NCBI GenBank assembly: GCA_964430745.1
Contig: CAYSHI010000304.1
Coordinates: forward strand, 5,180 to 69,179
Origin: an uncultured Acidobacteriota bacterium
GTDB lineage: Bacteria; Acidobacteriota; UBA890
Reading direction: 5' to 3'
DNA: 64,000 nucleotides
In this document: positions 38,874-57,734 of the stretch, piece after piece
Position numbering within the stretch: the stretch's first letter is position 1
Layout: every line of letters begins with the position of its first letter
Made by a program: the position numbers and the translations under genes
The notes under the pieces: model-generated
Database searches by the model: none
Seen by the model: the letters and a program-made list of their open reading frames with translations, nothing else
What the model was told of the DNA's origin: nothing

Positions 38874-39038
38874 TGCACCTCGGAATTGTGGAGACGGCGT
38901 CCTCAACAAGTACGCCCACGCTACCGCCGCGTCGTCGTCCCTTCAAGCGCGTCCGTTGCCGCCTCCCGACGCGGCGACTATACTCGAATTTCTTTTCAGG
39001 ATTTGTGAGTCGACGCCCTCTCGCCCCCGTTCACGGCC

Positions 39039-39982: not shown

Positions 39983-40220
39983 TGTGCAATGTTATGAAAC
40001 TCTATTATCAGGTACGTCTAGAGTTTCTTAGAGAGTCAGGACAGACAATCAGGGGACCGAACAGAACTCGGCTGACGGCAATCGGCCTGCCACGTAATCG
40101 GCTCACCCGCCGATAGCACGGCACCGCAGCCACGACGCCTCAACGCATTCTGCGCGACACCGGGAAGTCCGCTGAACGTGGAGTGATAAGTGCGCCATTG
40201 AAGCCTCGAGAGCAATCCTC

Positions 40221-41042
40221 ATGGATTCGGCGATGAACACGCAGATCGGAGTCTATCTAGAGCACTGGGGCCTGGCGGGTAAGCCATTCGAGAACGTCCC
40301 GGACCCCGAAAGCGTTTACCTGTCGGAAAGCCACAGCCAGGCGGTCGACCTGCTTGAATACGCGATCCGCGAGCGCAAATCGGCGGCGCTACTGACCGGC
40401 GAATACGGCACCGGGAAAACGACCATGGTGCGCGTGCTGCTCTCCAAGGTCGACCTCGAGCAGTTCAGCACCGTGCTGATCAATTACCCGTTGGTCGAGG
40501 GCGAGGCCCTCTTCCGAAACATGCTCCGGCAAATGGACGCGGAGCCCGCCGAAGACACCAACAAGAGCGATCTGTACGCCGAGTTGGGGTCGTGCTTTCT
40601 CAACAACGCCTCCCGCGGTCTGCACAATCTCGTCGTGCTCGACGAAGCCCAGTCGCTGCCGGCCGACTCTCTGTACGAAGAGCTGCGGCTGTTGCTCAAC
40701 TTCCAGCTCAATGACCGGAACCTGGTAACCCTCCTGCTCGTGGGACAGGACGACCTCTGGAACCGAGTTTCCCAACTGCCGCAGCTCGCGGACCGTTTCA
40801 CCGTCAAGTGTCGGCTTCAGGAGCTCGACCTCGAACAGACCGTCAGCTACATCCGTCACCGTCTCGAGCATTTTGCGGGAGACCCGAAGATCTTCTCCGA
40901 TGACGCTCTGCAGCTCATCCACGACAGCTCGAAGGGAATTCCCCGTCGCATCAACAACCTCTGCGACCTGTCGCTGCTCATGGGTTTCCAACGCCAGCTC
41001 AAGGTTGTCGGGCCCGAAATCGTGAAGACCATATGGGTGTGA
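40221..41042 (+). CDS. ExeA/GspA-like AAA ATPase (PEP-CTERM/EPS-locus-type secretion ATPase)
   Basis: 273 aa; Walker A GEYGTGKTT, Walker B VVLDEAQ; AAA_22 architecture as in ExeA-like ATPases found at EPS/exosortase loci. Confidence 0.8.
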   Translation: MDSAMNTQIGVYLEHWGLAGKPFENVPDPESVYLSESHSQAVDLLEYAIRERKSAALLTGEYGTGKTTMVRVLLSKVDLEQFSTVLINYPLVEGEALFRNMLRQMDAEPAEDTNKSDLYAELGSCFLNNASRGLHNLVVLDEAQSLPADSLYEELRLLLNFQLNDRNLVTLLLVGQDDLWNRVSQLPQLADRFTVKCRLQELDLEQTVSYIRHRLEHFAGDPKIFSDDALQLIHDSSKGIPRRINNLCDLSLLMGFQRQLKVVGPEIVKTIWV

Positions 41043-41046
41043 TGAA

Positions 41047-42330
41047 ATGACGAACCTCATCGATTTCATCAAGTCATACGATGAGCTTCGCAAGGACGCC
41101 CGGCCGGCCGAGGGGGAGGCCGGCAACGCCGACGAGAAGCAACCGGAGAGCGCCGGCAATGCGACCGACGCCACTCAACCCGCGTCGGCCGCTCAACCCG
41201 CGTCACCGGCCGCCGTCGCGCCGCCCGCATCTCCGGCGCCGCCCGCATCTCCGGCGCCGGTCGCATCTCCGGCGCCGGTCGCACCGCCCTCGCCGGCCTC
41301 CGGCGTCGAGGTGGCCCCTTCGCCGGCCGATGCCCGCTCCGCGGAGGACATGGCGACCGCGGCGCGAGAGCTCTACGGTCGCGCGGTAATGGCCGTGTCG
41401 CGCCTGTTCGAAGCGGCGGTGATGGAGAAGCTGACCCCGGGCAGGCTGATGGCGACCGTCAACGAGCTCGAAACAATCAGTCCGGAGATCGTTCGCTCGA
41501 CCGCTCAGGGGCGGGACCTCCTGCGCGAGGCGATGGGAACCTACACTGAGGGAGAAGGATTCATCCTGCCGCATTCCGTAAACGTGGCAATCCTCGCCGT
41601 CCATCTCGGACGAGAGCTCGAGCTCGCCGAATCCGGACTATCGCAGCTCTGTCTCGCCGGATTCGTCCACGATGTCGGTAGCGTGCAGCTGCCCTCCGGA
41701 CTGCTGACCAAGGCCGACAGCCTGACCCCGAGCGAATGGGAGCTGATGCGCTCGCGGCCGACGCGCAGCTACGAGATGCTGCACGCTCTGGGCGGACGCT
41801 ACGAGCTTGTGGCCGAGATTTCCCGCCAGGTTTACGAGCGCCTCGACGGAAGCGGCTACCCTCGCGGCCTCCGGGAGGACGAGATCCTACCCGAAGCTCG
41901 GATTCTCGGAACCGTCGACTTCTTCGAGTCCTTCGCCCACCCGAGGCCGTACAGAGCCACCGTTCCCGGCAGCGCCAATCACGGCATCCAGATGCTCATG
42001 CAGATGGCCGACAAGTTCGGCTCCGCGACACTGAAAGCATTGGTGGGAAGCATCGGGTTGTTCCCGATCGGCAGCTACGTGCGCCTCAGCGGCGGCGAGA
42101 TCGGGCGGGTCGTGGACGTAAAGAGAGAGAACCCCATGCGCCCACAGGTCGAGGTGCTCCTCACCGCCGAGCGACGGCCGCCGCGAGAATCCCGCACTCT
42201 GGATCTCCTGTCGATTCCGCATATTTACGTTTCGCGGGCGCTGACCGCGTCAGATCTACGGGAACTCGGCCTACTTCCGCCACCCAGCGAAATGCCACCC
42301 CTGTCCGGCCCCGAAGACAGCCGGTCGTAG
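41047..42330 (+). CDS. HD-GYP domain protein (c-di-GMP phosphodiesterase family) with Pro/Ala-rich repeat N-terminus
   Basis: HD motif FVHDVGS and GYP motif DGSGYPRGL; N-terminal PASPAP tandem repeats encoded by an 18-bp DNA repeat near 41206-41290. Confidence 0.8.
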   Translation: MTNLIDFIKSYDELRKDARPAEGEAGNADEKQPESAGNATDATQPASAAQPASPAAVAPPASPAPPASPAPVASPAPVAPPSPASGVEVAPSPADARSAEDMATAARELYGRAVMAVSRLFEAAVMEKLTPGRLMATVNELETISPEIVRSTAQGRDLLREAMGTYTEGEGFILPHSVNVAILAVHLGRELELAESGLSQLCLAGFVHDVGSVQLPSGLLTKADSLTPSEWELMRSRPTRSYEMLHALGGRYELVAEISRQVYERLDGSGYPRGLREDEILPEARILGTVDFFESFAHPRPYRATVPGSANHGIQMLMQMADKFGSATLKALVGSIGLFPIGSYVRLSGGEIGRVVDVKRENPMRPQVEVLLTAERRPPRESRTLDLLSIPHIYVSRALTASDLRELGLLPPPSEMPPLSGPEDSRS

Positions 42331-42338
42331 GAGGAATC

Positions 42339-43655
42339 GTGCGGCCCCGAGACAATCAACGTTACTCCTACGGAATCGCGAGCCCGCGCGCTCCTTGGCG
42401 TCGCGTCGCGAAGCCGTTGGCGGTTCTGTTCACGCTTCAGTTGTCCGGCATCGGTTGCGCGGCTCGTGCGCCGGAGTTGGCGACACCGACACGACCCGAC
42501 GAGCTCGCCCCACTGCTCGCGGTGTACGAGGAACAGCTCGACCAACAGGGAATCACACTCGAGGGCGCGGAAGACTACGTCATCGGGCGCTCCGAGTCTC
42601 CACTGCCCCCCGCCGAAGCGCCGGCCGACACGTGGCCAGCCGACATGGAGGCAGCGGGCGACGAGGTAGCCGGGACCGAAGCAGACGGATACGAAGCAAC
42701 GGTCAACGAGGCGACCGAGGGAGCCGGCGCCGATGGACCTACCGCCGCCGTCTCACCGTTCCAGGACACCGGGGGGCAGATGACCTTCAAGGTGGTCGAC
42801 GGTGTCGCCGAGTACGTCTTCGGGCCCGGCGACGTCGTACAGGTGATCACCTACCTGGGCCCGGAGCCTCCCACGACGACCACTCACCGCGTGCAAGCCG
42901 ACGGCAATATCCAGATCGCCCGCTTCGGCCTGGGCTCGGTTGTCGCCGCCGGTGCGACCCCCACCGAGCTGACCCGCGTCCTGACCGGGATGTTCCGGCA
43001 GTACGTTCCGGCCGGCTTGGCGGAAGTCCGTGTCGAGGAGTACAACGCGTGGTCGGCGACGCTGACCGGAGAGATACGCAACACGCCCAACGGAGGGGCC
43101 GGCAATTATCCGATCCGAGGCCGCATCTCTCTCGGTGAGTTCATCAACGCCTACGGCGGCCCGACCCCGAATGCCGACCTTGGCGACGTTCGCGTCGTGC
43201 GTCAGGGAAACGAGTTGCGTTTCGACCTGGCCTCGATTCTCGCGGGCGCGGCGGACGACCCCCCGGTGCGGGCGGGCGACATCGTGCAGGTCGCGTCGAT
43301 CGCACAGGGATCGAGCCGCATGTTCATCTTCGGAGAGGTCCGGGAACCCGGCGTCTATACCTACAGCGAGGGGATTTCCGTACTCGACGCCATAGCTCAG
43401 GCAGGTGGCTGGACGCAGACCGCAAAGCGAGACGCGGTATACGTTTCACGGCCGACCTCGGGGGAAGTGATACCCGTCAACCTCGACGTGACGCTCGGCG
43501 CCGGGCAGGTAGCCAGCGCGCCGGCTCTCGAACCCGGGGATTTCGTCGTCGTTCCGTTCTCTCCGGACCGCAGCCAGAAGATCCGCGACTGGGTCGGCAT
43601 CGCCAGCCTCATCCTCAGCGCCCTTACGATCCTAGAGCTCATACGCCGCGACTGA
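42339..43655 (+). CDS. polysaccharide export outer-membrane lipoprotein (Wza-like, SLBB domains)
   Basis: GTG start with RBS ggagga; lipobox LSGIGC; Poly_export/SLBB-like repeats (GDVVQVITY..., GDIVQVA...); the track ORF 41736.. is an extension. Confidence 0.8.
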   Translation: MRPRDNQRYSYGIASPRAPWRRVAKPLAVLFTLQLSGIGCAARAPELATPTRPDELAPLLAVYEEQLDQQGITLEGAEDYVIGRSESPLPPAEAPADTWPADMEAAGDEVAGTEADGYEATVNEATEGAGADGPTAAVSPFQDTGGQMTFKVVDGVAEYVFGPGDVVQVITYLGPEPPTTTTHRVQADGNIQIARFGLGSVVAAGATPTELTRVLTGMFRQYVPAGLAEVRVEEYNAWSATLTGEIRNTPNGGAGNYPIRGRISLGEFINAYGGPTPNADLGDVRVVRQGNELRFDLASILAGAADDPPVRAGDIVQVASIAQGSSRMFIFGEVREPGVYTYSEGISVLDAIAQAGGWTQTAKRDAVYVSRPTSGEVIPVNLDVTLGAGQVASAPALEPGDFVVVPFSPDRSQKIRDWVGIASLILSALTILELIRRD

Positions 43656-43656
43656 C

Positions 43657-45870
43657 ATGCACTACGAACTGAACCTCCGCGACTACGTCCGCATCTTCCA
43701 GAAACGCAAGTGGACAATCATCCTGATGCCGGTACTCGCCGGGCTGCTGGGGTACTTCCTCACCCAGGCGCCGACGACGATATACGAGGCGACCGGGCGC
43801 TTGAGAATCGTCTCGCGGGGTCAACAAATGGACCTCATGCTGCAGACCTTCTACTACTACGAAGAGGGGAATCGCCTCGACACGCACGCCGAAGTAATGA
43901 TGAGCCGAGAGGTGCTCAAGGAGGTGGCCACGGAACTGGGCCTGATCAATCGCACCAATGCCGACGGCTCGCCGGTCACCGACGCGGACATCGCAGACGA
44001 CGAAGCATGGAGGGGACAGTTGGCGCGTCTGCGCGAGGCCATCACGCCGAGGGCCGTCTCCGGCACCAGCATCCTGGAGGTCACCGTGGGCCTCCCCGAC
44101 CAAGCCCAGGCAATCTCGTATCTGAATGTCCTGCTCGATACCTACGCGGCGCGGAACCGGTATCAGATCAACCAGGATGTCATCGAAGGCAAGCGCTTCC
44201 TCGTTGATCGGCTTGCCATGATCGAGGCCGACCTGGACCGATCCCAGCAGCGGCTCTCCGACTTCATGCTCGAGAACGCCGAGCGCCTGAGCTTGGGCAC
44301 CGACGAGATCGCGGTGACGCAGCGCGAGCTACAGCGCGTGCAGCGCCGACTCGCGGACACACGGGCGGTGATTACGGTGCTCGATCAGGCCCGCGCCAGC
44401 AACTCACTGCCGCCCGGAGGATTGCTCGCCAACATGGGGGCGGACGACACTACGCTGGCCACCTTCGGACCGACTCTGCGAGCACTGGATGAGAGACGCA
44501 CCGAGCTTCTGACCTACCAGGCAGAGTCTTCACCCGAGGTCCTGGCGGTCGAGAACGAGATCCGAGCAACTGCGGAGTCCCTGCGAGAGTTCTTCGCGGT
44601 TGCGGCGGATGAGCTCGAGCGTGAGCGTGACCGCCTGCGTGAGAGGTTCCTGGCGATGCCGGCCAACGACGCGGAGCTCGAGCGGCTGCGGCGCGAGGTA
44701 GCGCTGAACGCTGAGATCCACACGCAGATACGTTCCAACCTGGAGCAGGCGAATCTGCGGGACGTTAAGCAAACCCAGGAGATCCAGATCATCGAGCGTG
44801 CGATCGACGCATCACCCGTGATCGAGTCCGGTCGTGCCAACCGAAGCCTCATTGCCGCCGTCATCGGACTGATGCTCGGAATCGTCGTGGCGCTCCTCGT
44901 GGAGACGCTCGACACGTCGATCGGCGCCATCGAGGACATCGAATCACTCCTCACCCTACCGGTTATCGGCATCGTCCCGACCATCGACTTCGACGAAGTC
45001 CGAACCGTCATCCGAGGCACATCGCCGCAGTTGCTCGAGAACCCCGACATCGATCAGATGGCGTCGCTGGTCACGCACTACGATCCGCGGTCGCCGGTTG
45101 CCGAGGCGTATCGAGCGTTGCGAACCAACGTCGAGAAATTGCGCGACGCCGCCGATGCCAAGGCCATCATGGTGACCAGCTCCGTGCTCGAAGAGGGCAA
45201 AACAACGACCTCCGCGAACCTGGCGCTGGCGTTCGCCCAGATGGGCCGCAAGACGATCCTGGTGGCGGCGGATCTACGACGACCCCATACGCACCGAGTG
45301 TTCGGCCTGGACAAGGAGCCCGGTCTCGCCGATGTGCTCACCGGCGGAATGACCTGGGAAGCGGCCACGCGCGGCCTCTCCGACATCCTTCTCGGCGACC
45401 TGCCGATGGACATCGTGATGCTCACGCCGGGGATGGACAACCTCCACATCCTGCCTTCCGGCTCGAACCCTCTGAACCCGGCGGAGCTGCTCAGCGGCCG
45501 GGCGATGAGCAACGTGATTACCGAGCTTCGGCAGGTATTCGACGTCATCGTCATCGACACCCCGCCGATCATCCCGGTCACGGACTCAGCGGTGCTGGCC
45601 GAGCACACCGACGGCATCGTGCTGGTCTACGAGGTGGGCAAGGTAGGCCGCGACGTCCTGCGCCGCGCCAAGGGCCACTTCGACAACGCCAAGGCCGACG
45701 TCTGGGGCATCGTCATGAACGACGTCCGCGCAGAGGCCGAGACCACGCTGCGCGACACGGACTACTACTACTATCACCACCGTTACGAGGAGGAGCAGTC
45801 GGGCTCGGCCTCGGGTGTCTTCGGAGGCCTGGGAAGAGCGGCGTCGAAGATCCTGGGTCGCCGCGCCTGA
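43657..45870 (+). CDS. polysaccharide co-polymerase / tyrosine autokinase (Wzc-like)
   Basis: 737 aa; N-terminal TM plus Wzz domain, coiled coil, second TM, C-terminal P-loop VTSSVLEEGKTTTSANLA, Walker B DVIVIDTPP, Tyr-rich tail DYYYYHHRY. Confidence 0.85.
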   Translation: MHYELNLRDYVRIFQKRKWTIILMPVLAGLLGYFLTQAPTTIYEATGRLRIVSRGQQMDLMLQTFYYYEEGNRLDTHAEVMMSREVLKEVATELGLINRTNADGSPVTDADIADDEAWRGQLARLREAITPRAVSGTSILEVTVGLPDQAQAISYLNVLLDTYAARNRYQINQDVIEGKRFLVDRLAMIEADLDRSQQRLSDFMLENAERLSLGTDEIAVTQRELQRVQRRLADTRAVITVLDQARASNSLPPGGLLANMGADDTTLATFGPTLRALDERRTELLTYQAESSPEVLAVENEIRATAESLREFFAVAADELERERDRLRERFLAMPANDAELERLRREVALNAEIHTQIRSNLEQANLRDVKQTQEIQIIERAIDASPVIESGRANRSLIAAVIGLMLGIVVALLVETLDTSIGAIEDIESLLTLPVIGIVPTIDFDEVRTVIRGTSPQLLENPDIDQMASLVTHYDPRSPVAEAYRALRTNVEKLRDAADAKAIMVTSSVLEEGKTTTSANLALAFAQMGRKTILVAADLRRPHTHRVFGLDKEPGLADVLTGGMTWEAATRGLSDILLGDLPMDIVMLTPGMDNLHILPSGSNPLNPAELLSGRAMSNVITELRQVFDVIVIDTPPIIPVTDSAVLAEHTDGIVLVYEVGKVGRDVLRRAKGHFDNAKADVWGIVMNDVRAEAETTLRDTDYYYYHHRYEEEQSGSASGVFGGLGRAASKILGRRA

Positions 45871-45885
45871 GGAGGGTCGCGCCTC

Positions 45886-47331
45886 ATGGCCTCTACGACC
45901 ACCGCCTCGACGAGCCTCAAGCACCCACCGAACCGGTCGGCGTCGCTGTCGCCGAATGCTGTCGGCATCATAGCGATTCTGATTCTCGCCCCCCTGATCG
46001 CCCTGTTGGCGGCGTCGGCTGAGCTCACCACCATCGGCATCTTCGCCGCGGCTCTGCTGCTGCTACTCGTCGTCCTGTGGTCGTCCGAGGCGACGTTTTA
46101 CGTGCTGATCCTGTCGATGCTGCTGTCGCCGGAGTTCATTGTCGGTCAGCTCGGCGGCGAGTCGGCGGCGACGGCGAGCCGCGGCGTGACGCTGCGACTC
46201 GACGACTACGTCATCCTCATCATCTCGTTCGCCTGGCTGATCCGCCTGGCGGTGTTCAAGGAGGCGGCGCTGCTGCGGCGCACCCCGCTGAACGCGCCGA
46301 TTCTCGTTTACCTGACCTTCGCCGCGCTGGTCACGCTCTGGGGCGGGATGATGGAGCGACTGAACCTGCTGACCGGGGTCTTCTTCATCCTCAAGTATCT
46401 CGAATACGCGTTCATCTATTTTCTCGTGGTGAACTACGTTCGCGATCGCACGCAGGTACGCCGGCTGTTGATCGCCGTGCTGGCGACCGCGGTGATCATC
46501 TCGATCATCGGCTTGGCTCAGATCCCGGCTGGTGGCCGCATCAGCGCGCCGTTCGAGGGTGAGCGGGGGGAGCCGAACACCCTGGGTGGCTACCTCGTCT
46601 TCACCATGGCGTTGGCGCTCGCGTACCTGGGAGAGGCGCGCACGGCAAAGGAGCGCTTCGCGTGGCTCGCCGCGGTGGCCATCATGACGGTGCCGCTGGC
46701 ATTCACGTATTCGCGAACATCGTGGCTCGCGTTTGTGGTCATGTTGTGCGCCACCATCCTCCTGAGCAGAAACAAGACGATCTTCCTGCTGCTCATCTCG
46801 GCGGGGCTGGTATTCCTTGTGCTGTCCCCGCCTCAGGCGCTCCTGGAACGCGCCACGTACACGCTCAGCTCGCACCGGGACAGCGTGTCGTTCCTGGGCT
46901 ACACCATCGAACCCTCGGCAGCCGCGCGCCTCGAAGCGTGGGTCACCGCCGCTCGCGTTCTGACCAAATATCCGGTTACCGGCGCAGGCGTGACCGGCGC
47001 CGGACTGATCGACGCGCAGTACCCGAGAATCCTGGCCGAGACCGGCCTCATCGGGTTCGGGCTCTTCTGCTGGATGGTCTGGCGCTTGTTCGGAACCGGC
47101 TTTCGACTGCGCCGCCTCGCATGCAACCGCACGGAGTCCGTTCTGGCGGCGGGCTTTCTCGCCGGCTTCGCCGGCATCTTGATGCACGGCATCGGCGCGA
47201 ACACGTTCATCATCGTCCGGATCATGGAACCGATGTGGATGATTGTCGGCCTGATCGGCGCGTCCCTGCTGATGCACCAGGACCAGAGCCGACAGACACC
47301 GGGCGCCGCAGCGCCCGGTGTGGAAGCCTGA
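45886..47331 (+). CDS. O-antigen ligase/polymerase-family membrane protein (Wzy-like)
   Basis: 481 aa, roughly 10-12 TM helices; large loop with conserved R/H between late helices, typical of the Wzy_C family. Confidence 0.7.
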   Translation: MASTTTASTSLKHPPNRSASLSPNAVGIIAILILAPLIALLAASAELTTIGIFAAALLLLLVVLWSSEATFYVLILSMLLSPEFIVGQLGGESAATASRGVTLRLDDYVILIISFAWLIRLAVFKEAALLRRTPLNAPILVYLTFAALVTLWGGMMERLNLLTGVFFILKYLEYAFIYFLVVNYVRDRTQVRRLLIAVLATAVIISIIGLAQIPAGGRISAPFEGERGEPNTLGGYLVFTMALALAYLGEARTAKERFAWLAAVAIMTVPLAFTYSRTSWLAFVVMLCATILLSRNKTIFLLLISAGLVFLVLSPPQALLERATYTLSSHRDSVSFLGYTIEPSAAARLEAWVTAARVLTKYPVTGAGVTGAGLIDAQYPRILAETGLIGFGLFCWMVWRLFGTGFRLRRLACNRTESVLAAGFLAGFAGILMHGIGANTFIIVRIMEPMWMIVGLIGASLLMHQDQSRQTPGAAAPGVEA

Positions 47332-49608: not shown

Positions 49609-50840
49609 AAACCCTCTTGTTGACGTTCGACTACCCTCCGATGATCGGCGGAATCGCGAACGCTCTCGGAACCCTGTGGGAACGCTCGGGATGCCACGAG
49701 TCGGTTGTCCTGGCACCGGCCGGCAAGGGCGCAGGCGAGCTCGACGGCGCCGGGCGGAGTACCACCGTGCGCTTCCCGGTCGTCGCCGGAAACGGTGTCG
49801 CGAGCAAGCTCATCAACTTGTCTTCCGGGCTCGCGTGGTTCACCTATTGTGCGATCCGCTTTCGTCCACAGTTGGTCATCGCCGGGCAGATCCGTCGCGC
49901 CGGCCCGATTGCCCGCCTGTGGAGCATCGTCACCCGCAGGCCCTACTACTTGTGGGTATACGGCGGCGAGACCAGCCCCGACTTCACCCGTTCCGCCCGC
50001 GCGACGGCGTACTTGCAGCGTGTCCTGCGAGGGGCGCGCGTCGTCTTCACCATCTCGCCCTACACGACCCGCCTGATGTCGGACTTCGGAATCCCCGGAT
50101 CCCGGATCGTCGAGGTCCCGCTGGGCACACGCCATGATGTCGGCCCGCGCCCGAAGGATCGAGGATACACGGACAAGCTGGGGCTCCACGGAAAACTCGT
50201 GTTCCTGACGGTGGGACGGTTGGTCGAGCGGAAGGGCGTCGACACAATGCTGCGAGCCCTCGCCGAGATCGATGCGGAGCTACCGGCCTGGCGCTACCTC
50301 GTGGTCTCGGACGGCCCGTATCGCGTCGCTCTGGAAGAGCTGGCCTCCCGCCTCGGGATCGCCGACAGGGTGACGTTCACCGGGTACGTCGACGACGCGG
50401 AGCTGGCGACCTATTACAACCTCTCCGATGTCTTCTGCATGCCGAACCGCGAGGTAGTGACTCAGGGCGGCTCCAGCCTCTCCGTCGAGGGCTTCGGCAT
50501 GGTCTTCGTCGACGCCGCGGCGTGCGGCAAGCCGGTCATCGGCGGCCGCTCGGGCGGCGCTGTTGACGCCATCTCGCACGGCGTGAACGGATTCCTCGTT
50601 GCACCCGGCGACGTGGAAGATCTGAAACGCGCCATCGTTCGGCTCGCCGACGCCGGAGTCCGCGCGACCATGGGCAAGGCCGGTTTGGAGCTCGCCTCTC
50701 GTTTCGACTGGAGTCGATCGGCGAGCGTCCTTCGTCCTTATCTCAGCGGCGAGAAGCGACCCGGGTTCGACGGCGACGCGCGGTCGCGGCTCGGCGACGA
50801 AGATCAGCAGCGCTTCGGCGGCGAGGAGGAACGCGGATGA
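49605..50840 (+). CDS. glycosyltransferase family 4
   Basis: ATG 49605 (ATGA overlap); motif CMPNREVVTQGGSSLSVEGFGMVFVDAAACGKPVIG; the track ORF 49359.. is an extension. Confidence 0.8.
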   Translation: MKTLLLTFDYPPMIGGIANALGTLWERSGCHESVVLAPAGKGAGELDGAGRSTTVRFPVVAGNGVASKLINLSSGLAWFTYCAIRFRPQLVIAGQIRRAGPIARLWSIVTRRPYYLWVYGGETSPDFTRSARATAYLQRVLRGARVVFTISPYTTRLMSDFGIPGSRIVEVPLGTRHDVGPRPKDRGYTDKLGLHGKLVFLTVGRLVERKGVDTMLRALAEIDAELPAWRYLVVSDGPYRVALEELASRLGIADRVTFTGYVDDAELATYYNLSDVFCMPNREVVTQGGSSLSVEGFGMVFVDAAACGKPVIGGRSGGAVDAISHGVNGFLVAPGDVEDLKRAIVRLADAGVRATMGKAGLELASRFDWSRSASVLRPYLSGEKRPGFDGDARSRLGDEDQQRFGGEEERG

Positions 50841-51976
50841 AGGTCCTTCACTTGATCACGCGTCTCGATCCCGGAGGGTCCGCCGAGAACACGCTGCTCA
50901 CCTGCCACCACCTCGTAGAGAACGGCTGGCAAGCGCGGCTCGCCGCCGGTCCCGGCTGGACCGGCAAGGAGGCCAACGTCGGAGACGCCCGCGTGCCGGT
51001 GTTGCTGATCCCGACGATGCAGCGAGATCCTTCGCCGATCGCCGACGCGCGGGCCTTCTGGCAGATCTATCGCATCCTGCGGCGTGAACGCCCGACGATC
51101 CTTCACACGCACTCGGCGAAAGCGGGCGTGCTCGGCCGTTGGGCCGGCGTAGCAGCCCGCGTACCGGTGATCGTTCACACTCCTCACGGACACGTGCTCT
51201 ACGGGTACGCACGCGGTCTGAAGAACTGGATCTACCTGCTTGCCGAGCGGATGTGCGCGCCGGTTTCCGATTCCCTCGTGGCGCTGAGCGAAGGCGAGAA
51301 GCGGGAGTCGGCGGAGGCCGGAATCGGCGCATTGAAAAAATGGACCGTGGTTCCCAGCGGCGTGGACGTCGACGGGATCGAACGGAGGCCCGAGCGCCCC
51401 GCCGGCGCCAAGGTCAGGGTCGGCACCGTCGCCCGCCTCGAACACGTCAAAGGTGTCGATGTGCTGGTTCGGGCCGCGAGCGTGCTCTCGTCCCAAGATC
51501 TGCCGGATCACGAAATCCTCGTCTGGGGAGAGGGCCGGGAGCGGCAGGAGCTCGTCGATCTGACGGCACGGCTCGATGTCGGCCACCGCGTTCGCTTCGT
51601 CGGCACGGAGCAGCCGGTCGAAGAGTTCCTCGGCAGCCTGGACGTCTACACCCAGCCTTCGCGCAACGAAGGAATGGGGCGGGCGCTGGTGCTCGCCCAG
51701 GCCGCCGGACTACCCGTGGCGGCGAGCAGTGTGTGCGGCATTCCCGATGTGGTTCGCGACGGCGAAACCGGCCTGCTGGTGCCACCGGATCAGCCCGAGG
51801 CGCTCGCGGGCGCTATCGCCCGATTCGTGCGGGACCCTTCTACCCGAGACGGTTTCGGCGACGCCGCGCGATCGTGGATCATGTCCCACGACGAAACGGG
51901 CTACCCGAGGTTCAGCACGGCGGCGATGCTCTGGCGCCTCGAAGCGTTGTACCAACAGCTGTCCGAGGACCGATGA
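50837..51976 (+). CDS. glycosyltransferase family 4
   Basis: 379 aa; motif TQPSRNEGMGRALVLAQAAGLPVAAS. Confidence 0.8.
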   Translation: MKVLHLITRLDPGGSAENTLLTCHHLVENGWQARLAAGPGWTGKEANVGDARVPVLLIPTMQRDPSPIADARAFWQIYRILRRERPTILHTHSAKAGVLGRWAGVAARVPVIVHTPHGHVLYGYARGLKNWIYLLAERMCAPVSDSLVALSEGEKRESAEAGIGALKKWTVVPSGVDVDGIERRPERPAGAKVRVGTVARLEHVKGVDVLVRAASVLSSQDLPDHEILVWGEGRERQELVDLTARLDVGHRVRFVGTEQPVEEFLGSLDVYTQPSRNEGMGRALVLAQAAGLPVAASSVCGIPDVVRDGETGLLVPPDQPEALAGAIARFVRDPSTRDGFGDAARSWIMSHDETGYPRFSTAAMLWRLEALYQQLSEDR

Positions 51977-53622
51977 AGCGGGCGATGCAGGGCGTCGTTC
52001 GATGGATCGCCGCGGCCCTTGTCGGCGTCGCATTCGCGGCGATTCCGGCGGAAGCGGGTTTGGCGCCCCAGGAATCGTCATCGCCGCGAGTAACAGCCGT
52101 GGAACCAGCGGCAGCCATCGGCGCTCGGAAACATGACGCCGGCCCGGACCAGCTCGTGGCCGCCGTTCACGTGCACTCGAGCGCCAGCAGCGGGGCGCTG
52201 CCGATGCCAGAGCTCGCTCAGCTGGCGCGACAATCCGGCCTTGACGTGCTCGTACTCGGAGAGAACCTTGGCTACGAGTTCCGCTACGCGCCCGCGGGCC
52301 TGCGTATGTTCGGCGAGGCCCGCGTCACGACGGAAACGCTCGAACGCCACGGGATAGCCCGCTTTCTGGAGGAGGTCGCCGCAGCTCGCGTCGCGCAACC
52401 GGATCTGCTTCTGCTCGCGGGCGCCGAAGTGCCGCCATACTACTACTGGACGGGGAGCCTGCTGCAGGGTGATCTGACGTTGCGCGACCTGCAACGCAAC
52501 ATCCTGCTGATCGCGCCGGTGGACGCATCGACGGACGCGACCCACGCGTTCTTCCGGGACGTCCCGGCCGTCGGGAATCCCCACCACCGCGAATACGGGA
52601 CACGTAGTCTCGCGCTATTGGTCCCGGGGTTGCTGTGTGTCGGATTCGCGGCCCGATTGCTGACTCGACCCGCATCCGGCGCTCCCTCGCGGAGGCCGGC
52701 CGCGCCCGCGGCTGCCCTGCTCACCGTCGGCACGATATTGCTGTACATGAATTTCCCCTACTCGGCCCCCGTGCTCGCCCCCTATTCACCGGGCGCCGCC
52801 GCACGGGCAGCCGAGAGCGTGCTGTCCCACGCGCGAGACCACGGCGGCCTGGGCTATTGGTCGATGCCGCAGGCGGTTGCCGAAAGCGAGCGCGGGGTGG
52901 GCCCGGTGACGGTTCGGCTGTCAACGGTTCCCTACCCCGAGGTGCTCGCCGAGCCGAGCGCGTACACGGGCTTCGGGGGCGTATACGCGGATACGGTGAC
53001 GTTGTGGGAAGCGGGCGATGCCTGGGACAAGGCGATTCTCGCTTTCCAGTCGGGCCGGCGCGATCGGCCGCCCTGGATCATGGGGGAGTCCGCCTTTCAC
53101 TACCCCGGCCAGGCGGGCAAGCATATCGGCGACGTCGTCACCGTCCTGCTCGTCGAAGAACAGACCGAGCATGCTGTCTTCACGGCCCTCTCCGAGGGGA
53201 GCAGCTACGCTCTGCGACGCGATCGAGGTCATCCCGATATACGGCTCGGCGAGTTCTCGATCATCCGCACCGGTACGGTCGACGCACGCCACCGTGAGGA
53301 GCCGGACACGTCGAGCGCACCGGCCTCCGCGCCGGAGGCGAAGCGAGCCGGTCAGACTTTGGCGGTACTAACGCCCGAAGCCATCGAAACCGAGCTTGTC
53401 GTGCAGGTGTACGATACGGCGGGCTCGCGGACACCCATTGACGTCGAGATCATTCGCAACGGTGAGGTGCACCGGCGAGTCGCGGGGGCAACGCCGTTTG
53501 AACAACGCTGGCGAGAGACGCTTGCCGCCGGCGACAGGAGCGCCTACTACCGGGTCGTCGTGCGCGCGACGCGCGCCGCGTACCTCGTCTCCAACCCCAT
53601 ATTCATCGAGCGCGACCGTTGA
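51973..53622 (+). CDS. exported PHP-like metal-dependent phosphoesterase domain protein
   Basis: ATG 51973 (ATGA overlap); signal peptide; VHVHSSASSGALP resembles the PHP/CpsB H-x-H-x-x-S-D-G start motif; internal TM; family assignment tentative. Confidence 0.45.
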   Translation: MKRAMQGVVRWIAAALVGVAFAAIPAEAGLAPQESSSPRVTAVEPAAAIGARKHDAGPDQLVAAVHVHSSASSGALPMPELAQLARQSGLDVLVLGENLGYEFRYAPAGLRMFGEARVTTETLERHGIARFLEEVAAARVAQPDLLLLAGAEVPPYYYWTGSLLQGDLTLRDLQRNILLIAPVDASTDATHAFFRDVPAVGNPHHREYGTRSLALLVPGLLCVGFAARLLTRPASGAPSRRPAAPAAALLTVGTILLYMNFPYSAPVLAPYSPGAAARAAESVLSHARDHGGLGYWSMPQAVAESERGVGPVTVRLSTVPYPEVLAEPSAYTGFGGVYADTVTLWEAGDAWDKAILAFQSGRRDRPPWIMGESAFHYPGQAGKHIGDVVTVLLVEEQTEHAVFTALSEGSSYALRRDRGHPDIRLGEFSIIRTGTVDARHREEPDTSSAPASAPEAKRAGQTLAVLTPEAIETELVVQVYDTAGSRTPIDVEIIRNGEVHRRVAGATPFEQRWRETLAAGDRSAYYRVVVRATRAAYLVSNPIFIERDR

Positions 53623-53653
53623 GCGTCGGCTGCTCGGTGCGAGCCCATCGCCC

Positions 53654-54346
53654 ATGACAATCCTCGCGGCACACCAACCTCAATACCTGCCCTGGCTCGG
53701 CTTCTTCGACAAGCTCGACCAGGCGGACGTGTTCGTCCTCCTGGACGACGTGCAGTTCAAGAAGAACGAATGGCAGAACCGAAACCGCATCAAGGGTCCG
53801 GCGGGGCCACAGTGGCTGACCGTCCCCGTGCGTCACAAGTTCCCCCAGTCGATCGCCGAGGTCGAGGTGAGGGAGGGCGAGCCCTGGCGACGGAAGCACC
53901 TGCGCGCACTGGAAACCAACTACGGCAAGGCGCCCTTCTTCGAGGCCGAGATGCAGCTCTTGGCGGAGTTGTTGGAGCGTCCGTGGACGCACCTCGCGCC
54001 GCTGAACATCGAGCTGACCCGCCGCCTTGTCGAGCGGCTGGGCATTCGCACCGACATTCGGATGAGCTCCGAGCTCTCGGCGCGCCGGCACCCGACGCTC
54101 CGACTCGTCGACCTGTGTCTCGGACTCGGAGCGGACATGTATCTATCCGGAGCCGGAGGCGACTATCTGGAGCGGGAGGCGTTCGATGCGTCCGGCGTCG
54201 GCCTCCGGTTCCAGCAGTTCACCCATCCGAGCTACGGCCAACTTCACGGTGAATTCGAGCCCTGCCTGTCGGTGGTCGACCTCCTGATGAACTGCGGCGA
54301 CGAGAGTCTTTCCGTCATTCAATCCGGTAGAATTGCCCCGTCATGA
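53654..54346 (+). CDS. WbqC-family protein
   Basis: 230 aa; AHQPQYLPWLGFFDKLDQADVFVLLDDVQF matches the WbqC-like N-terminus; common in O-antigen/EPS clusters. Confidence 0.7.
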   Translation: MTILAAHQPQYLPWLGFFDKLDQADVFVLLDDVQFKKNEWQNRNRIKGPAGPQWLTVPVRHKFPQSIAEVEVREGEPWRRKHLRALETNYGKAPFFEAEMQLLAELLERPWTHLAPLNIELTRRLVERLGIRTDIRMSSELSARRHPTLRLVDLCLGLGADMYLSGAGGDYLEREAFDASGVGLRFQQFTHPSYGQLHGEFEPCLSVVDLLMNCGDESLSVIQSGRIAPS

Positions 54347-54969
54347 GAATACTTGCGCTGGGTTGCCACCCCGATGACATCGAGTTCGGCTGCGGCGGAA
54401 CACTGTCGAAGTACGCCAGGGCCGGCCACGAGATCTACATGATGGTCATGACGCAGGGTCACGCGGGCGGCGATGACAGCCTGCGCCGGGCCGAGCAGGA
54501 AACCGCGGCGAAGATCCTCGGCTGCAAGAAGCTCTTCTGGGGCAACTACCGCGACACGGAGCTTCCGTTGAGTCGCAAGCTGATCCAGGGCATCGAGGAG
54601 GTGATCGAACAGGTCGCGCCATCGTTCATCTTCGTCCACTACGGCGACGACACACACCAGGACCACCGCGTGCTGTCGCAGGCAACCGTGACGGCTACCC
54701 GCTACACCCGCAACGTGCTGTTCTACGAGGGGCCGACGACGCAGAACTTCATCCCCACGGTCTTTGTTGCCATCAACGACGTCATCGCCCACAAGATCGA
54801 AGCGCTCGAGGCACACGCGTCGCAGGTGCGCAAAACGAACATCGGCGACCTCAATATCGTCGAGCTGGTCGAAGCCGCATCGCTCTTTCGAGGGACCCAG
54901 GCGCGCATCAAGCACGCCGAAGGATTCTCGCCTTTGCGCCTGTTCATCAACGTGTCGGCCGGGGAGTAA
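54343..54969 (+). CDS. PIG-L/LmbE-family deacetylase
   Basis: 208 aa; ILALGCHPDDIEFGCGGT and HQDH motifs. Confidence 0.8.
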   Translation: MRILALGCHPDDIEFGCGGTLSKYARAGHEIYMMVMTQGHAGGDDSLRRAEQETAAKILGCKKLFWGNYRDTELPLSRKLIQGIEEVIEQVAPSFIFVHYGDDTHQDHRVLSQATVTATRYTRNVLFYEGPTTQNFIPTVFVAINDVIAHKIEALEAHASQVRKTNIGDLNIVELVEAASLFRGTQARIKHAEGFSPLRLFINVSAGE

Positions 54970-54971
54970 CC

Positions 54972-56099
54972 TTGCCGGAGGCTGGCCCAACCGGCGACGC
55001 CATGACCGCAGACCACATCGCGACGATTCCCCATTCCCGCCCTCTGCTGGGCGCGGAAGAAGCGGCAGCGGCGGCCGATGTGCTCCGGTCCGGACAGCTT
55101 TCGCAAGGCCCGCGGGTCGCCGCGCTCGAGGCCGCGACCGCTGTCGCCGTCGACGCGGCGCCTTCGACCGAGCACGCCGCCACCCACGCGGTGGCCGTTT
55201 CATCGGGAACGGCGGCGCTCTATGTCGCGCTCAAGGCGCTCGGCGTGGCCGGCGGCGACGAGGTCTTGATCCCCGCGTTCGCGTGCGCCAGCCTGCACCA
55301 GGCGGTCGTTCACGCGCGCGCGACACCACGATTCATCGATTGTGACCCGCACTCACTGAACCCCGATGCGGACGACGCCCGACGAAAGCTCAGCTCGCGC
55401 ACCACCGCCTGCATCGTGCCCCATCTGTTCGGACTGCCGGCCGACATCGCGGCTTTCTCGGCCCTGGACGTCCCGGTTGTCGAGGACTGCGCCCAGACTC
55501 TCGGAGTGTCCGTCGGCGATCGCCGCGTCGGGAGCTTCGGAGTGCTGACCGTGTGCTCGTTCTACGCCACAAAGCTCGTCGCCGGCGGCGAGGGGGGCAT
55601 GGTCCTGTCGCGCGATCGTCGCCTCACCGATGCCGCCCGCTCGTTGCGTGACTGCGAGCAGTCGGACGCAGCGGAGGCCGCCTTCAACTTCAAGATGAGC
55701 GACCTTCACGCGGCCATCGCCCAGGTGCAGCTCCGCCGTCTCGACGACATCCTGCGCCGACGCCGCCTGCTTGCAGGCGCCTACCGCGAGGCCCTCGAAG
55801 ACGCCGGCGTGGACCTACCCGTCGAGCCGACGGCCGGCGGCCACGCCTGGTTCCGGTTCGTCGTCGGACTCCGCGCTACCGACATCGGCTCGCTGATCGA
55901 CCGCTGCGACCGACGAGGCCTGTCGTGCCGACGCCCCGTTGGCCGTCTGGCACCGGGAGTCGACCTGGACGCCCTTCCGGGCTGTCGCTCGGCATGGGAA
56001 GAAAGCTGCTCGCTTCCCCTCTATCCCGCGCTTTCCGACATCGAAGCCCGCCAGGTGCCCGAACGGTTCAAGGCGGCACTCGGAGGCGCCGATGACTAG
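54972..56099 (+). CDS. DegT/DnrJ/EryC1/StrS-family sugar aminotransferase
   Basis: SRPLLG..E start region and PLP fold; an alternative ATG lies at 55002. Confidence 0.8.
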   Translation: MPEAGPTGDAMTADHIATIPHSRPLLGAEEAAAAADVLRSGQLSQGPRVAALEAATAVAVDAAPSTEHAATHAVAVSSGTAALYVALKALGVAGGDEVLIPAFACASLHQAVVHARATPRFIDCDPHSLNPDADDARRKLSSRTTACIVPHLFGLPADIAAFSALDVPVVEDCAQTLGVSVGDRRVGSFGVLTVCSFYATKLVAGGEGGMVLSRDRRLTDAARSLRDCEQSDAAEAAFNFKMSDLHAAIAQVQLRRLDDILRRRRLLAGAYREALEDAGVDLPVEPTAGGHAWFRFVVGLRATDIGSLIDRCDRRGLSCRRPVGRLAPGVDLDALPGCRSAWEESCSLPLYPALSDIEARQVPERFKAALGGADD

Positions 56100-56168
56100 C
56101 CGCGTTCGCTCCCGAGACCGCCGAAGCGATCGGCGGCAGAGAGCCACGAACCACTCCCGGAGAGAGCG

Positions 56169-57734
56169 ATGACGAACCGAGAGCGCCTGCTGAGCTTCGC
56201 TTTGGCCGTGGTCGCCATCGTCTTGCTCCTGCCGCCGATCAGCGGTCTGTTTTTCGTCGCGGGAAACCGCTGGGTGTATGTGTTGGCGCTCAGCTTCTGT
56301 ATTTCCGGCGCCACCACTCCGGTGATTCGAGACGTTGCCGTCAGGATCGGGGCGGTCGACAAGCCCGACGGCGCGGAAGGCCGGAAGATCCACCAACGTT
56401 CGACCGCCCTGCTCGGCGGCGTCGCCGTCTGGTTCGGGATCGTCGGCGCACTCGTTGCCAACGGCGTGTGGCCCGCGGGGCTCGCCCCGGTTCTCGCCAC
56501 GGGCACGATTCTGCTCGTTTTTTCCGCCGCCGACGACGTGCGCCCGATCCGCACCTCCCTGAAGCTGGTAGCGTTTCTGGTGTGCGCCGCGTTCGCCGTG
56601 TCCGCGGGAGCCCAAGCCTCCATCTTTCCCCCGTCGCCGCTGGGCACGGCCGCGAATCTGCTCCTCAGCTTCGTGTGGATCGTCGGCATCTTCAACGCGC
56701 TGAACTTCCTCGATGGCATGGACGGGCTCGCCGCGGGCCTGTCGGTCGTTATCGCCGTTCTGATGGGCGTCGTCGCTTTCGAAACATCGCAGCCGGGGAT
56801 CGGCTGGGCCACGGCGGCAATCGCCGGCGCCTGCCTCGGCTTCATTCCCTACAACTTTCGCCCGGGCGGCCGCGCGACGATCTTTCTCGGCGACGCCGGC
56901 AGCAACTTCCTCGGCTTCGTCCTCGCCAGCCTGGCATTGTTGGGGTTCTGGGCCGAGGCCGACCCTCTGGTGGCGATCAGCAACCCGATTCTCATCTTCT
57001 CGGTGCTGATCTACGACATGACGTACATCACCATCGACCGCATTGCTTCGGGCAAGGTCCGTTCGTTCCACGACTGGATCGACTACACGGGCCAAGACCA
57101 CCTTCACCATCGGACCGCTGCCGTACTCGCCGGGCGCGGCAAGGCGGTGCTCTTCATCCTGATGATGAACACGGCGCTCGGCATCGCAGCTCTGGCGCTG
57201 CGCGGCGCAGACCGGGTCACGGCGGTCTTCTTGCTCGTTCAGGCGCTGTTGATCCTCAGCCTCATCACCATGCTCGAACGCCGTGGGAAGGGGCTCATCA
57301 GCGCTCTCTTGAAACAGGAGCCCCACATCAGCCGAGACCCGAACCGGCCGCCCGTCCTGGTCGTCGACTTCGACGGCACCATCGCGCTCTGGGCGCCCTC
57401 AGGCTATCCCGATATCGGCGAGCCGATCGAAGGCGCCCACCGATTCCTGCGGCTGCTCAAGAGCGAGGGCTGGAAGATCGTGATCAACAGCTGCAGAAGC
57501 GGCGTCGATCATGAAACTCGGATGGTCCGCTGGCTCACGGACCACAACATCCCGTTCGACGAGGTCAACCACAACTCGGATTATCCGTGGGCCAAGGGCA
57601 AGCCCGTCGGCGACGTCTACCTCGACGACCGCGGCGTTCGCTTCGAAGGCCGCTGGGACGCCGCTTATCAGAAGGTCCAGGAGTTGCTCCACCTCGCCGG
57701 CCAAAACGAGATCGCCTGCCGCGACGACGACTGA
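56169..57734 (+). CDS. polyprenyl-phosphate sugar-1-phosphate transferase (WecA/MraY family) fused to C-terminal HAD-like hydrolase domain
   Basis: About 10 TM helices with FNALNFLDGMDGLAAG (NxxNxxDGxDGL); C-terminal 120 aa soluble domain with DFDGT and GDVYLDDRG HAD motifs. Confidence 0.75.
   Translation: MTNRERLLSFALAVVAIVLLLPPISGLFFVAGNRWVYVLALSFCISGATTPVIRDVAVRIGAVDKPDGAEGRKIHQRSTALLGGVAVWFGIVGALVANGVWPAGLAPVLATGTILLVFSAADDVRPIRTSLKLVAFLVCAAFAVSAGAQASIFPPSPLGTAANLLLSFVWIVGIFNALNFLDGMDGLAAGLSVVIAVLMGVVAFETSQPGIGWATAAIAGACLGFIPYNFRPGGRATIFLGDAGSNFLGFVLASLALLGFWAEADPLVAISNPILIFSVLIYDMTYITIDRIASGKVRSFHDWIDYTGQDHLHHRTAAVLAGRGKAVLFILMMNTALGIAALALRGADRVTAVFLLVQALLILSLITMLERRGKGLISALLKQEPHISRDPNRPPVLVVDFDGTIALWAPSGYPDIGEPIEGAHRFLRLLKSEGWKIVINSCRSGVDHETRMVRWLTDHNIPFDEVNHNSDYPWAKGKPVGDVYLDDRGVRFEGRWDAAYQKVQELLHLAGQNEIACRDDD

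Follow-up and report, generated by a model that had tools for sequence, protein, structure and literature searches.

What do an ExeA-like AAA+ ATPase and an HD-GYP-fold protein do at the head of a polysaccharide export operon? This question is raised by a 17.5-kb exopolysaccharide (EPS) locus of an uncultured Acidobacteriota bacterium, located at positions 40221-57734 of a 64-kb stretch of DNA with a G+C content of ~66% (contig CAYSHI010000304.1, positions 5,180 to 69,179), which is referred to below as the window. A first-pass annotation had assigned the locus an exosortase-type architecture and had taken the HD-GYP protein for a phosphodiesterase degrading cyclic di-GMP (c-di-GMP) within the export module. 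The analysis presented here leads to a different reading. With moderate confidence, and judging from sequence and gene context, we regard the locus as a Wzx/Wzy-dependent EPS operon in which a nonhydrolyzing HD-GYP protein serves as the sensing or adaptor partner of the ATPase, and the pair gates the Wzc/Wza/Wzy machine.

The ATPase and the HD-GYP protein form a gene pair

The operon begins with two genes separated by 4 nucleotides (nt).

40221-41042, plus strand: AAA+ ATPase, ExeA/GspA-like, 273 amino acids (aa) (AAA_22, E value of 1.8e-19; TIGR03015, 195 bits)
41047-42330, plus strand: degenerate HD-GYP-fold protein, 427 aa (HD_5, E value of 5e-26)

A metagenome scan seeded with the ATPase alignment alone retrieved 80 loci, 59 of which offered 900 bp or more of sequence downstream. 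An open reading frame (ORF) of the HD-GYP family lies directly downstream on the same strand in 56 of these 59 loci, and the ATPase and the HD-GYP protein are an obligate gene pair. The pair recurs in several settings. It is present in locus L008 at 30% HD-GYP identity, in surroundings without EPS genes, and in L063, from a Gemmatimonadota metagenome-assembled genome (MAG), and L064 at 40 to 46% ATPase identity, where the partner is a protein with REC and HD_5 domains. Bare pairs also occur in Gemmatimonadota and Methylomirabilota MAGs. In L006, an HD-GYP protein of the window clade precedes Wza-Wzc-Wzy-Wzx without the ATPase. No natural fusion of the ATPase and the HD-GYP protein was found among the matches listed. 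The pairing of an ExeA/GspA/MshM-type ATPase with an HD-GYP protein was not described in the literature searched, the coverage of which was incomplete, making this weak evidence of novelty. The module of ATPase and pseudo-HD-GYP protein and its linkage to Wzc and Wzy across phyla appear to be undescribed; the pathway type itself is ordinary.

The Walker A (GEYGTGKTT), Walker B (DEAQ), and PRRINN motifs of the ATPase are intact and are invariant in the family alignment. Its AlphaFold2 (AF2) model has a pLDDT of 91 and a fold like that of the ORC, Cdc6, and TnsC proteins of the AAA+ initiator clade; a sequence search for a solved structure of the ATPase gave none. In a neighbor-joining tree of 13 sequences, the HD-GYP-coupled ATPases separate from an XrtA-type ATPase and from the ATPase of a Rhodovulum plasmid, which adjoins polysaccharide co-polymerase (PCP) and kinase genes without an HD-GYP gene; the tree suggests that HD-GYP coupling is monophyletic. 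The window ATPase shares its superfamily, the Walker A, DEAQ, and PRRIN motifs, and an association with outer-membrane channels with ExeA/GspA of type II secretion and MshM of the MSHA pilus. Unlike ExeA/GspA, it has no transmembrane (TM) segment and no periplasmic peptidoglycan-binding domain, its Pfam matches being AAA domains only, and it has an HD-GYP partner in place of ExeB, with no ExeB-like gene nearby.

This kinship suggests an alternative role for the pair as a secretin or outer-membrane polysaccharide export (OPX) assembly factor resembling ExeA/ExeB or MshM, with the HD-GYP protein as a scaffold only and no nucleotide signaling. Membership in the ExeA/GspA-like group, within which relatives are named GspA or ExeA in JGI and NCBI, is consistent with such a role, as is locus L095, where genes for a secretin (STN, Secretin_N, and Secretin domains) and TPR/coiled-coil proteins (4609-7994) lie directly upstream of ATPase-HD-GYP-Wza-Wzc-Wzy. 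ExeA-like ATPases without an HD-GYP partner also adjoin PCP/kinase genes in XrtA and Rhodobacterales plasmid loci, and a soil clade of the HD-GYP partners lacks the c-di-GMP contact residues (see below). However, ExeA function needs the TM segment and the peptidoglycan-binding domain (PMC4098917), both of which are missing from the 273-aa protein, and an assembly factor leaves the conserved GYP and RxYR motifs of the window clade unexplained. Both proteins of the pair are predicted to be cytoplasmic, and an effect at the outer membrane would therefore need to go through Wzc. We consider an assembly factor improbable.

An antiphage defense module composed of an ATPase and an HD nuclease was also considered and rejected, PADLOC returning two negligible ATPase matches of ~17 bits and none for the HD-GYP protein. 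Tandem duplicates of the ATPase were seen in L071, L083, L099, L124, L131, and L135.

The HD-GYP protein has lost catalytic residues

The HD-GYP protein consists of a disordered P/A-rich N terminus (residues 1 to 92), a helical stalk (93 to 163), the HD-GYP domain (173 to 336), and a small beta domain (344 to 398), and its AF2 model has a pLDDT of 81. A Foldseek search with this model ranked DvhD at the top, followed by PmGH and Bd1817, and also matched PA4781; the best PDB match by sequence is V-cGAP3, a cyclic GMP-AMP (cGAMP) phosphodiesterase. The NCBIfam scan contained no curated family for this partner. Assignment of the C-terminal beta domain to PilZ was rejected because the RxxxR and D/NxSxxG motifs, read by eye, do not fit.

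The N terminus had been noted to carry a PASPAP repeat encoded by an 18-bp DNA repeat, and Tandem Repeats Finder bears this out, with an 18-bp tandem repeat at 41217-41298 (3.3 to 4.4 copies, score of up to 108) and a second 18-bp unit at 41170-41204 (1.9 copies). The repeats code for PPASPA/PVASPA, a low-complexity linker of the PASPAP type that is disordered in the AF2 model. The length of the repeat-bearing protein varies from 376 to 479 aa among relatives, and P/A/E-rich linkers of a similar kind are found in the L063 and L064 homologs.

The active-site residues were read by alignment to PmGH (4mcw), V-cGAP3 (5z7c), and DvhD (9rbz) and from a family alignment of 121 sequences. H176, H208-D209, D291, G270-Y271-P272, and R300-x-Y302-R303 are retained. 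Three of the seven metal ligands are replaced, with H250, H276, and H277 of PmGH corresponding to R237, V262, and Y263. These residues occupy the His ligand positions of the second metal, HHE thus reading V262-Y263-E264, and the Lys of HDxGK is replaced by S212. The same degenerate pattern is found in ~50 close relatives, whereas canonical HD-GYP proteins among the same matches keep HDxGK, H, and HHE. Next to RxYR is a new invariant residue, His298. As described by Galperin and Chou (bioRxiv 10.1101/2021.11.05.467447), the His residues of HD-GYP domains are metal ligands needed for catalysis, c-di-GMP is contacted by RxY[K/R] and the GYP tyrosine, characterized HD-GYP proteins require two or three metals, and HnoD and ECA3548, which have altered HHE motifs, are inactive. 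With three ligands and the HDxGK lysine replaced and the RxYR and GYP motifs kept, a phosphodiesterase role is unlikely for the window protein and a role as sensor or adaptor is more likely. The fold recognized in the first-pass annotation and the position between the ATPase and the export genes hold, but the description as c-di-GMP degrading is not supported, given the replaced ligands.

The loss of catalytic residues extends across the ATPase-coupled family. The HDxGK lysine is missing from all 83 HD-GYP proteins found adjacent to the ATPase, and 81 of them lack one or more of the seven metal ligands. In the clade of the window and Desulfobacterales proteins, the ligands lost are H237, H262, and H263, whereas another ATPase-coupled clade has EHE for HHE, and a soil clade has lost the His of HD and the RxY[KR] motif and has GFP for GYP. 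These differences between clades indicate that what is conserved in the ATPase-coupled HD-GYP proteins is not catalysis.

A competing explanation is that the protein is an active phosphodiesterase, acting on c-di-GMP, cGAMP, or another substrate through a remodeled or mononuclear metal site, that lowers the messenger locally at the export machine. The retained H176...H208-D209...D291 tetrad, GYP, and RxYR are compatible with this, as are the invariant His298, the V-cGAP3 match, and the single His of the HH pair kept in some relatives. Against it stand the replacement of all three second-metal ligands and of the HDxGK lysine in a family whose characterized members need two or three metals, the inactivity of HnoD, ECA3548, and DvhD, in all of which the HH pair is substituted, and the clade-specific pattern of ligand loss, which is unlike that of a conserved enzyme. 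An active enzyme is thus unlikely in our estimation.

For the sensor or adaptor role, DvhD of Desulfovibrio vulgaris (PDB 9rbz; 2026) is the closest precedent of a receptor-type HD-GYP protein, in a different architecture and system. Experimentally, DvhD binds c-di-GMP without metal and without hydrolysis, for which it needs R650, Y652, and R653, and its HH and HD motifs are changed to MN and SQ, respectively (PMC13090378). R300, Y302, and R303 of the window protein align with these three residues. The two proteins share the HD-GYP fold, the RxYR motif, and a preceding helical stalk, and the HH pair is replaced in both (MN in DvhD and VY in the window protein), whereas the HD dyad lost in DvhD is kept in the window protein. 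DvhD is a membrane protein with a dCache-PAS-HD-GYP arrangement that controls a LapG-like protease and adhesins, with no ATPase partner and no link to EPS.

Gene content of the EPS operon

Positions 40221-57734 were resolved by Pfam and NCBIfam scans as one tightly packed gene array on the plus strand. All 14 genes named in the first-pass annotation were recovered at or near their reported coordinates with hidden Markov model (HMM) support, which upholds its description of a 17.5-kb EPS locus of the Wza/Wzc/Wzy type. The ATPase and HD-GYP genes are followed by 12 genes, all on the plus strand.

42339-43655, plus strand: Wza-type OPX outer-membrane export protein (Poly_export and two SLBB domains)
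43657-45870, plus strand: Wzc, a fused PCP-2a co-polymerase and bacterial tyrosine kinase (BY-kinase), 737 aa (Wzz, GNVR, AAA_31)
45886-47331, plus strand: Wzy_C-family polymerase with 11 predicted TM segments (PF04932, 35.2 bits, above the cutoff of 31.7)
47318-48460, plus strand: glycosyltransferase GT4a (Glycos_transf_1/Glyco_transf_4)
48457-49608, plus strand: glycosyltransferase GT4b (Glycos_transf_1/Glyco_transf_4)
49605-50840, plus strand: glycosyltransferase GT4c (Glycos_transf_1/Glyco_transf_4)
50837-51976, plus strand: glycosyltransferase GT4d (Glycos_transf_1/Glyco_transf_4)
51973-53622, plus strand: exported PHP/CehA-like putative metallo-phosphoesterase, 549 aa (signal peptide; VHVH motif)
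53654-54346, plus strand: WbqC (PF08889, 258 bits), true start at ATG 53654
54343-54969, plus strand: PIG-L de-N-acetylase (PF02585, 95 bits)
54972-56099, plus strand: DegT aminotransferase (PF01041, 232 bits)
56169-57734, plus strand: WecA/MraY-family initiating phosphoglycosyl transferase with 10 TM segments (PF00953, 108 bits)

The true start of Wza is GTG 42339, and its sequence reads as that of a probable lipoprotein (signal LSGIGC) with a hydrophobic helix at the C terminus. Wzc scores 160 bits on TIGR01007, above the cutoff of 108, and carries the C-terminal tyrosine cluster YYYYHHRY. All four GT4s have orthologs in L003 and L023. The PHP-like protein gave no match in the Pfam scan and matches CehA/McbA only weakly (NF038032, 38.8 bits, under its cutoff); homologs are present in L024, L026, L032, L057, L103, and L136, including Desulfobacterales loci, and the gene is missing from the closest complete genome (L003). 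WecA is fused at its C terminus to a HAD-type phosphatase (residues 397 to 509) matching BT0820 and EcbF/BcbF capsule phosphatase models, and several Desulfobacterales loci have WecA ORFs of comparable length. The WbqC gene contains two copies of a 20-bp tandem unit (89% match; 54143-54181, plus strand).

Exactly 4 bp are shared at 5 of the 13 junctions (GT4a/b, b/c, c/d, d/PHP, and WbqC/PIG-L) and 14 bp at the Wzy/GT4a junction; five junctions are gaps of 1 to 15 bp, and PHP/WbqC and DegT/WecA are separated by 31 and 69 bp, respectively. The packing is operon-like, as reported earlier, but the statement that most junctions overlap by 4 bp was an overstatement.

The components of the Wzx/Wzy pathway found above thresholds are the initiating transferase (PF00953), four GT4s, Wzy (PF04932), Wzc (TIGR01007), and Wza (PF02563 with SLBB). 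A check of the polytopic ORFs revealed no Wzx (MOP) flippase in the operon or the 64-kb window, and none was found in the Desulfobacterales core or in the portion read of the locus in OZ244217.1, the closest complete genome. The related loci L005, L006, L012, L013, L032, L110, L115, L128, and L133 do encode Wzx, which adjoins Wzy in more distant loci of the family. In the source genome, Wzx is presumably encoded elsewhere.

Among known systems, the operon resembles the group 1 capsule/colanic acid type of Escherichia coli K30 in its initiating polyprenyl-phosphate transferase, cytoplasmic glycosyltransferases, Wzy_C polymerase, fused PCP-2a/BY-kinase with a Tyr cluster, and Wza with Poly_export and SLBB domains and a C-terminal helix. 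Unlike the K30 type, it has neither a Wzx flippase nor a Wzb-type phosphatase, its export block is headed by the AAA+ ATPase and the degenerate HD-GYP protein, and its initiating enzyme is HAD fused.

Comparison with exosortase loci

The closest curated family of the window ATPase is TIGR03015, the XrtA/PEP-CTERM ATPase, which raises the possibility that the locus is an XrtA-type PEP-CTERM EPS locus with an XrtA-associated ATPase, the exosortase, its substrates, and PrsK/PrsR being encoded elsewhere in the genome. PEP-CTERM systems are known from Acidobacteriota, and among NCBIfam models, the ATPase, Wza, two GT4s, and Wzy score best or nearly best on TIGR03015, TIGR03027, TIGR03088, and TIGR03097. 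The ATPase scores 195 bits against a TIGR03015 cutoff of 324.5, and the other HD-GYP-coupled ATPases score 210 to 241 bits. The remaining models of the PEP-CTERM system gave the following scores.

TIGR03027 (export): window 84 bits, cutoff 180
TIGR03018 (Tyr kinase): window 139 bits, cutoff 230.65
TIGR03007 (chain-length determinant): window 67 bits, cutoff 278.85
TIGR03088 (stp2): window 157 bits, cutoff 409
TIGR03097 (O-ligase): window 43 bits, cutoff 188

As a positive control, the XrtA locus on the Nitratidesulfovibrio vulgaris plasmid NZ_CP116248 passes the cutoffs with its ATPase (427.7 bits), export (216 bits), Tyr kinase (261 bits), and chain-length (520 bits) proteins. The window proteins fall under every PEP-CTERM cutoff and the control lies above them, so that, by sequence, the locus is not of the exosortase type. 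The exosortase-type architecture ascribed to it earlier is not borne out, and the ExeA-like ATPase, taken as an exosortase marker, has TIGR03015 as its closest family but does not reach the cutoff. Of the families suggested earlier for checking, TIGR03015, TIGR03007, and TIGR03018 gave scores that fell short, at 195, 67, and 139 bits.

Gene content points the same way. The control locus has a TIGR03013 transferase, split PCP and kinase genes, FemAB, PEP-CTERM proteins, and a TIGR03016 outer-membrane protein immediately after the ATPase, and it has no HD-GYP gene; unlike its split genes, the PCP and the kinase of the window are fused in one Wzc. Measured against the defining features of the PEP-CTERM system (Haft 2006, PMC1569441) and the control, the window locus shares with XrtA loci the ~270-aa ExeA-like ATPase beside OPX, PCP, and Tyr kinase genes, the GT4s, DegT, and an O-antigen-ligase-like protein, but it lacks exosortase, PEP-CTERM proteins, PrsK/R/T, TIGR03013, the TIGR03016 outer-membrane protein, FemAB, and EpsI.

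The absence of exosortase and PEP-CTERM proteins from the window, noted before, was confirmed: Wzy and WecA are the sole polytopic membrane ORFs of the 64 kb, and a regular-expression search of all six-frame ORFs found no credible PEP-TM-basic C terminus. Nor did model scans detect an exosortase among the unlabeled polytopic ORFs of the related loci (32 loci of 452 kb and 82 further loci of 605 kb, ~1.06 Mb in total), which are Wzx flippases, RND/ABC components, CPBP proteases, or without matches. CPBP/CAAX-type intramembrane protease genes lie a few kilobases upstream of the cassette in L025 (3298-3984), L027 (2619-3341), and L057 (983-3211), all on the minus strand, and such proteases in Desulfobacterales loci gave weak MrtJ and pepcterm_CAAX matches, all under cutoff. 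The earlier statement that no sigma-54 PrsR/PrsK pair is visible is correct for PrsR, but the window nevertheless encodes two sigma-54 enhancer-binding proteins (EBPs), at 33758-35446 and 20882-22501 (both minus strand). They score 283 and 255 bits on TIGR02915 (cutoff, 502.6), matching its AAA+ core only; their best matches are NifA/NorR-like, and neither is PrsR. With scores far below cutoffs that a genuine locus passes, a gene set built otherwise, no exosortase among the polytopic ORFs of the window and related loci, and an ATPase that clusters with its HD-GYP-coupled relatives and not with the XrtA type, an exosortase system completed elsewhere in the genome is very unlikely.

Linkage to export genes in related loci

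The wider distribution of the pair is consistent with a role of the ATPase and the HD-GYP protein at the export machine. Of the ATPase-seeded loci, 33 span 7 kb or more. With Wzc and Wzy homologs counted at 100 bits or more, one or both are present in 21 of these, and two more carry WecA, DegT, and PHP-like genes. The position of the pair varies, with the orders ATPase-HD-GYP-Wzc-Wzy, Wza-ATPase-HD-GYP-Wzc-Wzy, and Wzc-ATPase-HD-GYP-Wzy all being seen. The module lies within Wzc/Wza/Wzy blocks in Acidobacteriota, Desulfobacterota, and many unclassified metagenome contigs. The best matches to the window locus are MAGs labeled Acidobacteriota, and in the closest complete genome, OZ244217.1 (L003/L011), the order is conserved from the upstream regulators through the GT4s to WbqC. 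In Desulfobacterales/Desulfosudaceae MAGs, the order is GT4a-d, (Gmd), (PHP-like), WbqC, PIG-L, DegT, WecA, HD-GYP, ATPase, Wza, Wzc, and Wzy, an arrangement that permutes the gene order of the window circularly and keeps the WbqC/PIG-L/DegT block adjacent to WecA.

In L088 (8001-13487), the pair is followed by HDOD, canonical GAF-HD-GYP, and PilZN (YcgR-like) genes, a c-di-GMP signaling cluster, and no EPS genes lie within 8 kb of it. The secretin-bearing arrangement of L095 recalls MshL-MshM-MshN. In L004 (11144-14700), from a related MAG, the EPS operon is disrupted: Wza breaks off after ~200 aa, and several transposase genes come next.

Proposed function of the pair

In the operon as we read it, the WecA-type enzyme would initiate the repeat unit on undecaprenyl phosphate, PIG-L, DegT, WbqC, and the four GT4s would build and modify it, and Wzy would polymerize it, with export via Wzc, as co-polymerase and tyrosine autokinase, and Wza, as the outer-membrane channel. 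The ATPase and the HD-GYP protein would act as one functional unit, a cytoplasmic switch whose ATPase is of the initiator (ORC/TnsC-like) switch type. The HD-GYP protein of the window clade probably senses c-di-GMP or a related dinucleotide via the retained RxYR and GYP site, and ATP-dependent assembly of the AAA+ protein would gate the Wzc/Wza/Wzy machine post-translationally. We infer the sugar chemistry, the nucleotide binding, the physical interaction of the ATPase with the HD-GYP protein, and the target, Wzc/Wza, from sequence and context. The local second-messenger control of export suggested in the first-pass annotation remains plausible as control, but exerted by sensing jointly with the ATPase instead of by hydrolysis.

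The closest functional analogy is BcsE-BcsQ. In E. coli-type cellulose secretion (BcsE-BcsQ(R)) and in Pel (PelD), a degenerate c-di-GMP-metabolizing domain is reused as a sensor inside an EPS operon; in cellulose secretion, this sensor acts together with a small P-loop ATPase and controls secretion post-translationally. There is no homology, however: the Bcs and Pel systems use a degenerate GGDEF/GIL domain and a SIMIBI ATPase, the window an HD-GYP protein and an initiator-clade AAA+ protein, and the former are synthase dependent whereas the latter is Wzy dependent.

Several observations weigh against the sensing and gating role. About one-third of the pairs are not beside EPS genes, and AAA+ proteins of the ORC/TnsC type usually act on DNA. 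The operon has no Wzx, so that the pathway as encoded here is incomplete. The H...HD...D tetrad, which is enough for one-metal HD hydrolases, is kept, and residual or altered hydrolase activity is therefore possible; in some close relatives, QVHE keeps one His of the HH pair. Since the soil clade has neither RxY[KR] nor GYP, c-di-GMP sensing cannot be the function of the whole family, and what the ATPase-coupled HD-GYP proteins have in common may be only a structural role as partners of the ATPase. The wider proposition, that the pair is a widespread and apparently undescribed second-messenger checkpoint acting post-translationally on Wzx/Wzy-dependent export via Wzc/Wza/Wzy, is put forward only tentatively, as something possible but less than probable.

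Promoter region and upstream genes

A promoter scan predicted one sigma-70-like promoter before the operon.

39979-40008, plus strand: sigma-70-like promoter, TTGATG-18-TATTAT

The start codon of the ATPase gene follows ~210 nt downstream, and the promoter motif is conserved in the two closest relatives, L003 and L010. Sigma-54 control of the operon was rejected, as no -24/-12 site was found upstream of the ATPase; sigma-54-like sites number 15 in the window against 14.9 expected from shuffles, and none was found in relatives of the window clade. In some non-acidobacterial cassettes, strong sigma-54 matches lie immediately upstream of the HD-GYP gene, as in L032 (9301-9316, 11/11), L038 (9428-9443, 10/11), and L021 (9818-9833, 9/11). 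A riboswitch or structured leader was likewise rejected, with no Rfam match at gathering score in the window or at an E value of ≤1 in 39900-40300 and a leader folding z-score of 0.10, that is, no excess folding.

The operon is preceded by a block of genes (33758-39982) that is conserved in the Acidobacteriota clade, its order being shared by L003, L004, L010, L015, and L017.

33758-35446, minus strand: sigma-54 EBP, GAF-type in relatives
35301-36632/36737, minus strand: Asp_protease_2/TPR protein
36736-36978, plus strand: conserved 80-aa helical ORF with no family assignment
38448-38909, minus strand: HTH_17 protein
39039-39596, plus strand: hemerythrin
39593-39982, plus strand: 129-aa membrane protein

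Whether this block is functionally part of the operon is uncertain. The HTH_17, hemerythrin, and 129-aa membrane protein genes keep their position before the operon across the acidobacterial clade, the last also preceding HD-GYP in L006 and L007, and the three may provide an O2, NO, or iron input. The 80-aa ORF, divergent from the Asp_protease_2/TPR and sigma-54 EBP genes, is ~95% identical among the window, L001, L003, and L004, neighboring proteins being 60 to 80% identical, and a conserved motif, TTTTCACTTTCC...TGGTATATTCAC, lies upstream of it.

Other features of the window

An operon at 57774-60981 (minus strand), convergent with the EPS operon, encodes a type III polyketide synthase, a flavin adenine dinucleotide (FAD)-dependent oxidoreductase, and a PRK06202-like methyltransferase, which we take to be a phenolic-lipid trio like srsABC or ars. 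The best sigma-54-like site of the window, TGGCATGAGGCTTGCT (10/11; 19252-19267, plus strand), lies 60 bp upstream of an ORF for a secreted NHL-repeat protein (19312-20376), in a region adjoining the sigma-54 EBP gene at 20882-22501 (minus strand). An extracytoplasmic function (ECF) sigma factor is encoded at 17466-18023.

Implications

For annotation, an ATPase with a TIGR03015 score of ~200 to 240 bits and an HD_5 gene behind it should not be taken as an exosortase marker, and the label "HD-GYP phosphodiesterase" on the partners of such ATPases is probably wrong. To our knowledge, regulation of Wzx/Wzy-dependent polysaccharides by c-di-GMP is known mostly for transcription, and dedicated post-translational c-di-GMP receptors are known for the synthase-dependent polymers cellulose, alginate, Pel, and poly-N-acetylglucosamine. 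If the proposed role is true, the checkpoint would be the Wzy-pathway counterpart of PelD, Alg44, and BcsA/BcsE, and the HD-GYP protein would be a second, independent HD-GYP scaffold turned receptor after DvhD, coupled to an ORC/TnsC-type ATP switch. The pair is a testable candidate for post-translational control of the Wzy-dependent pathway in environmentally dominant, mostly uncultured lineages.

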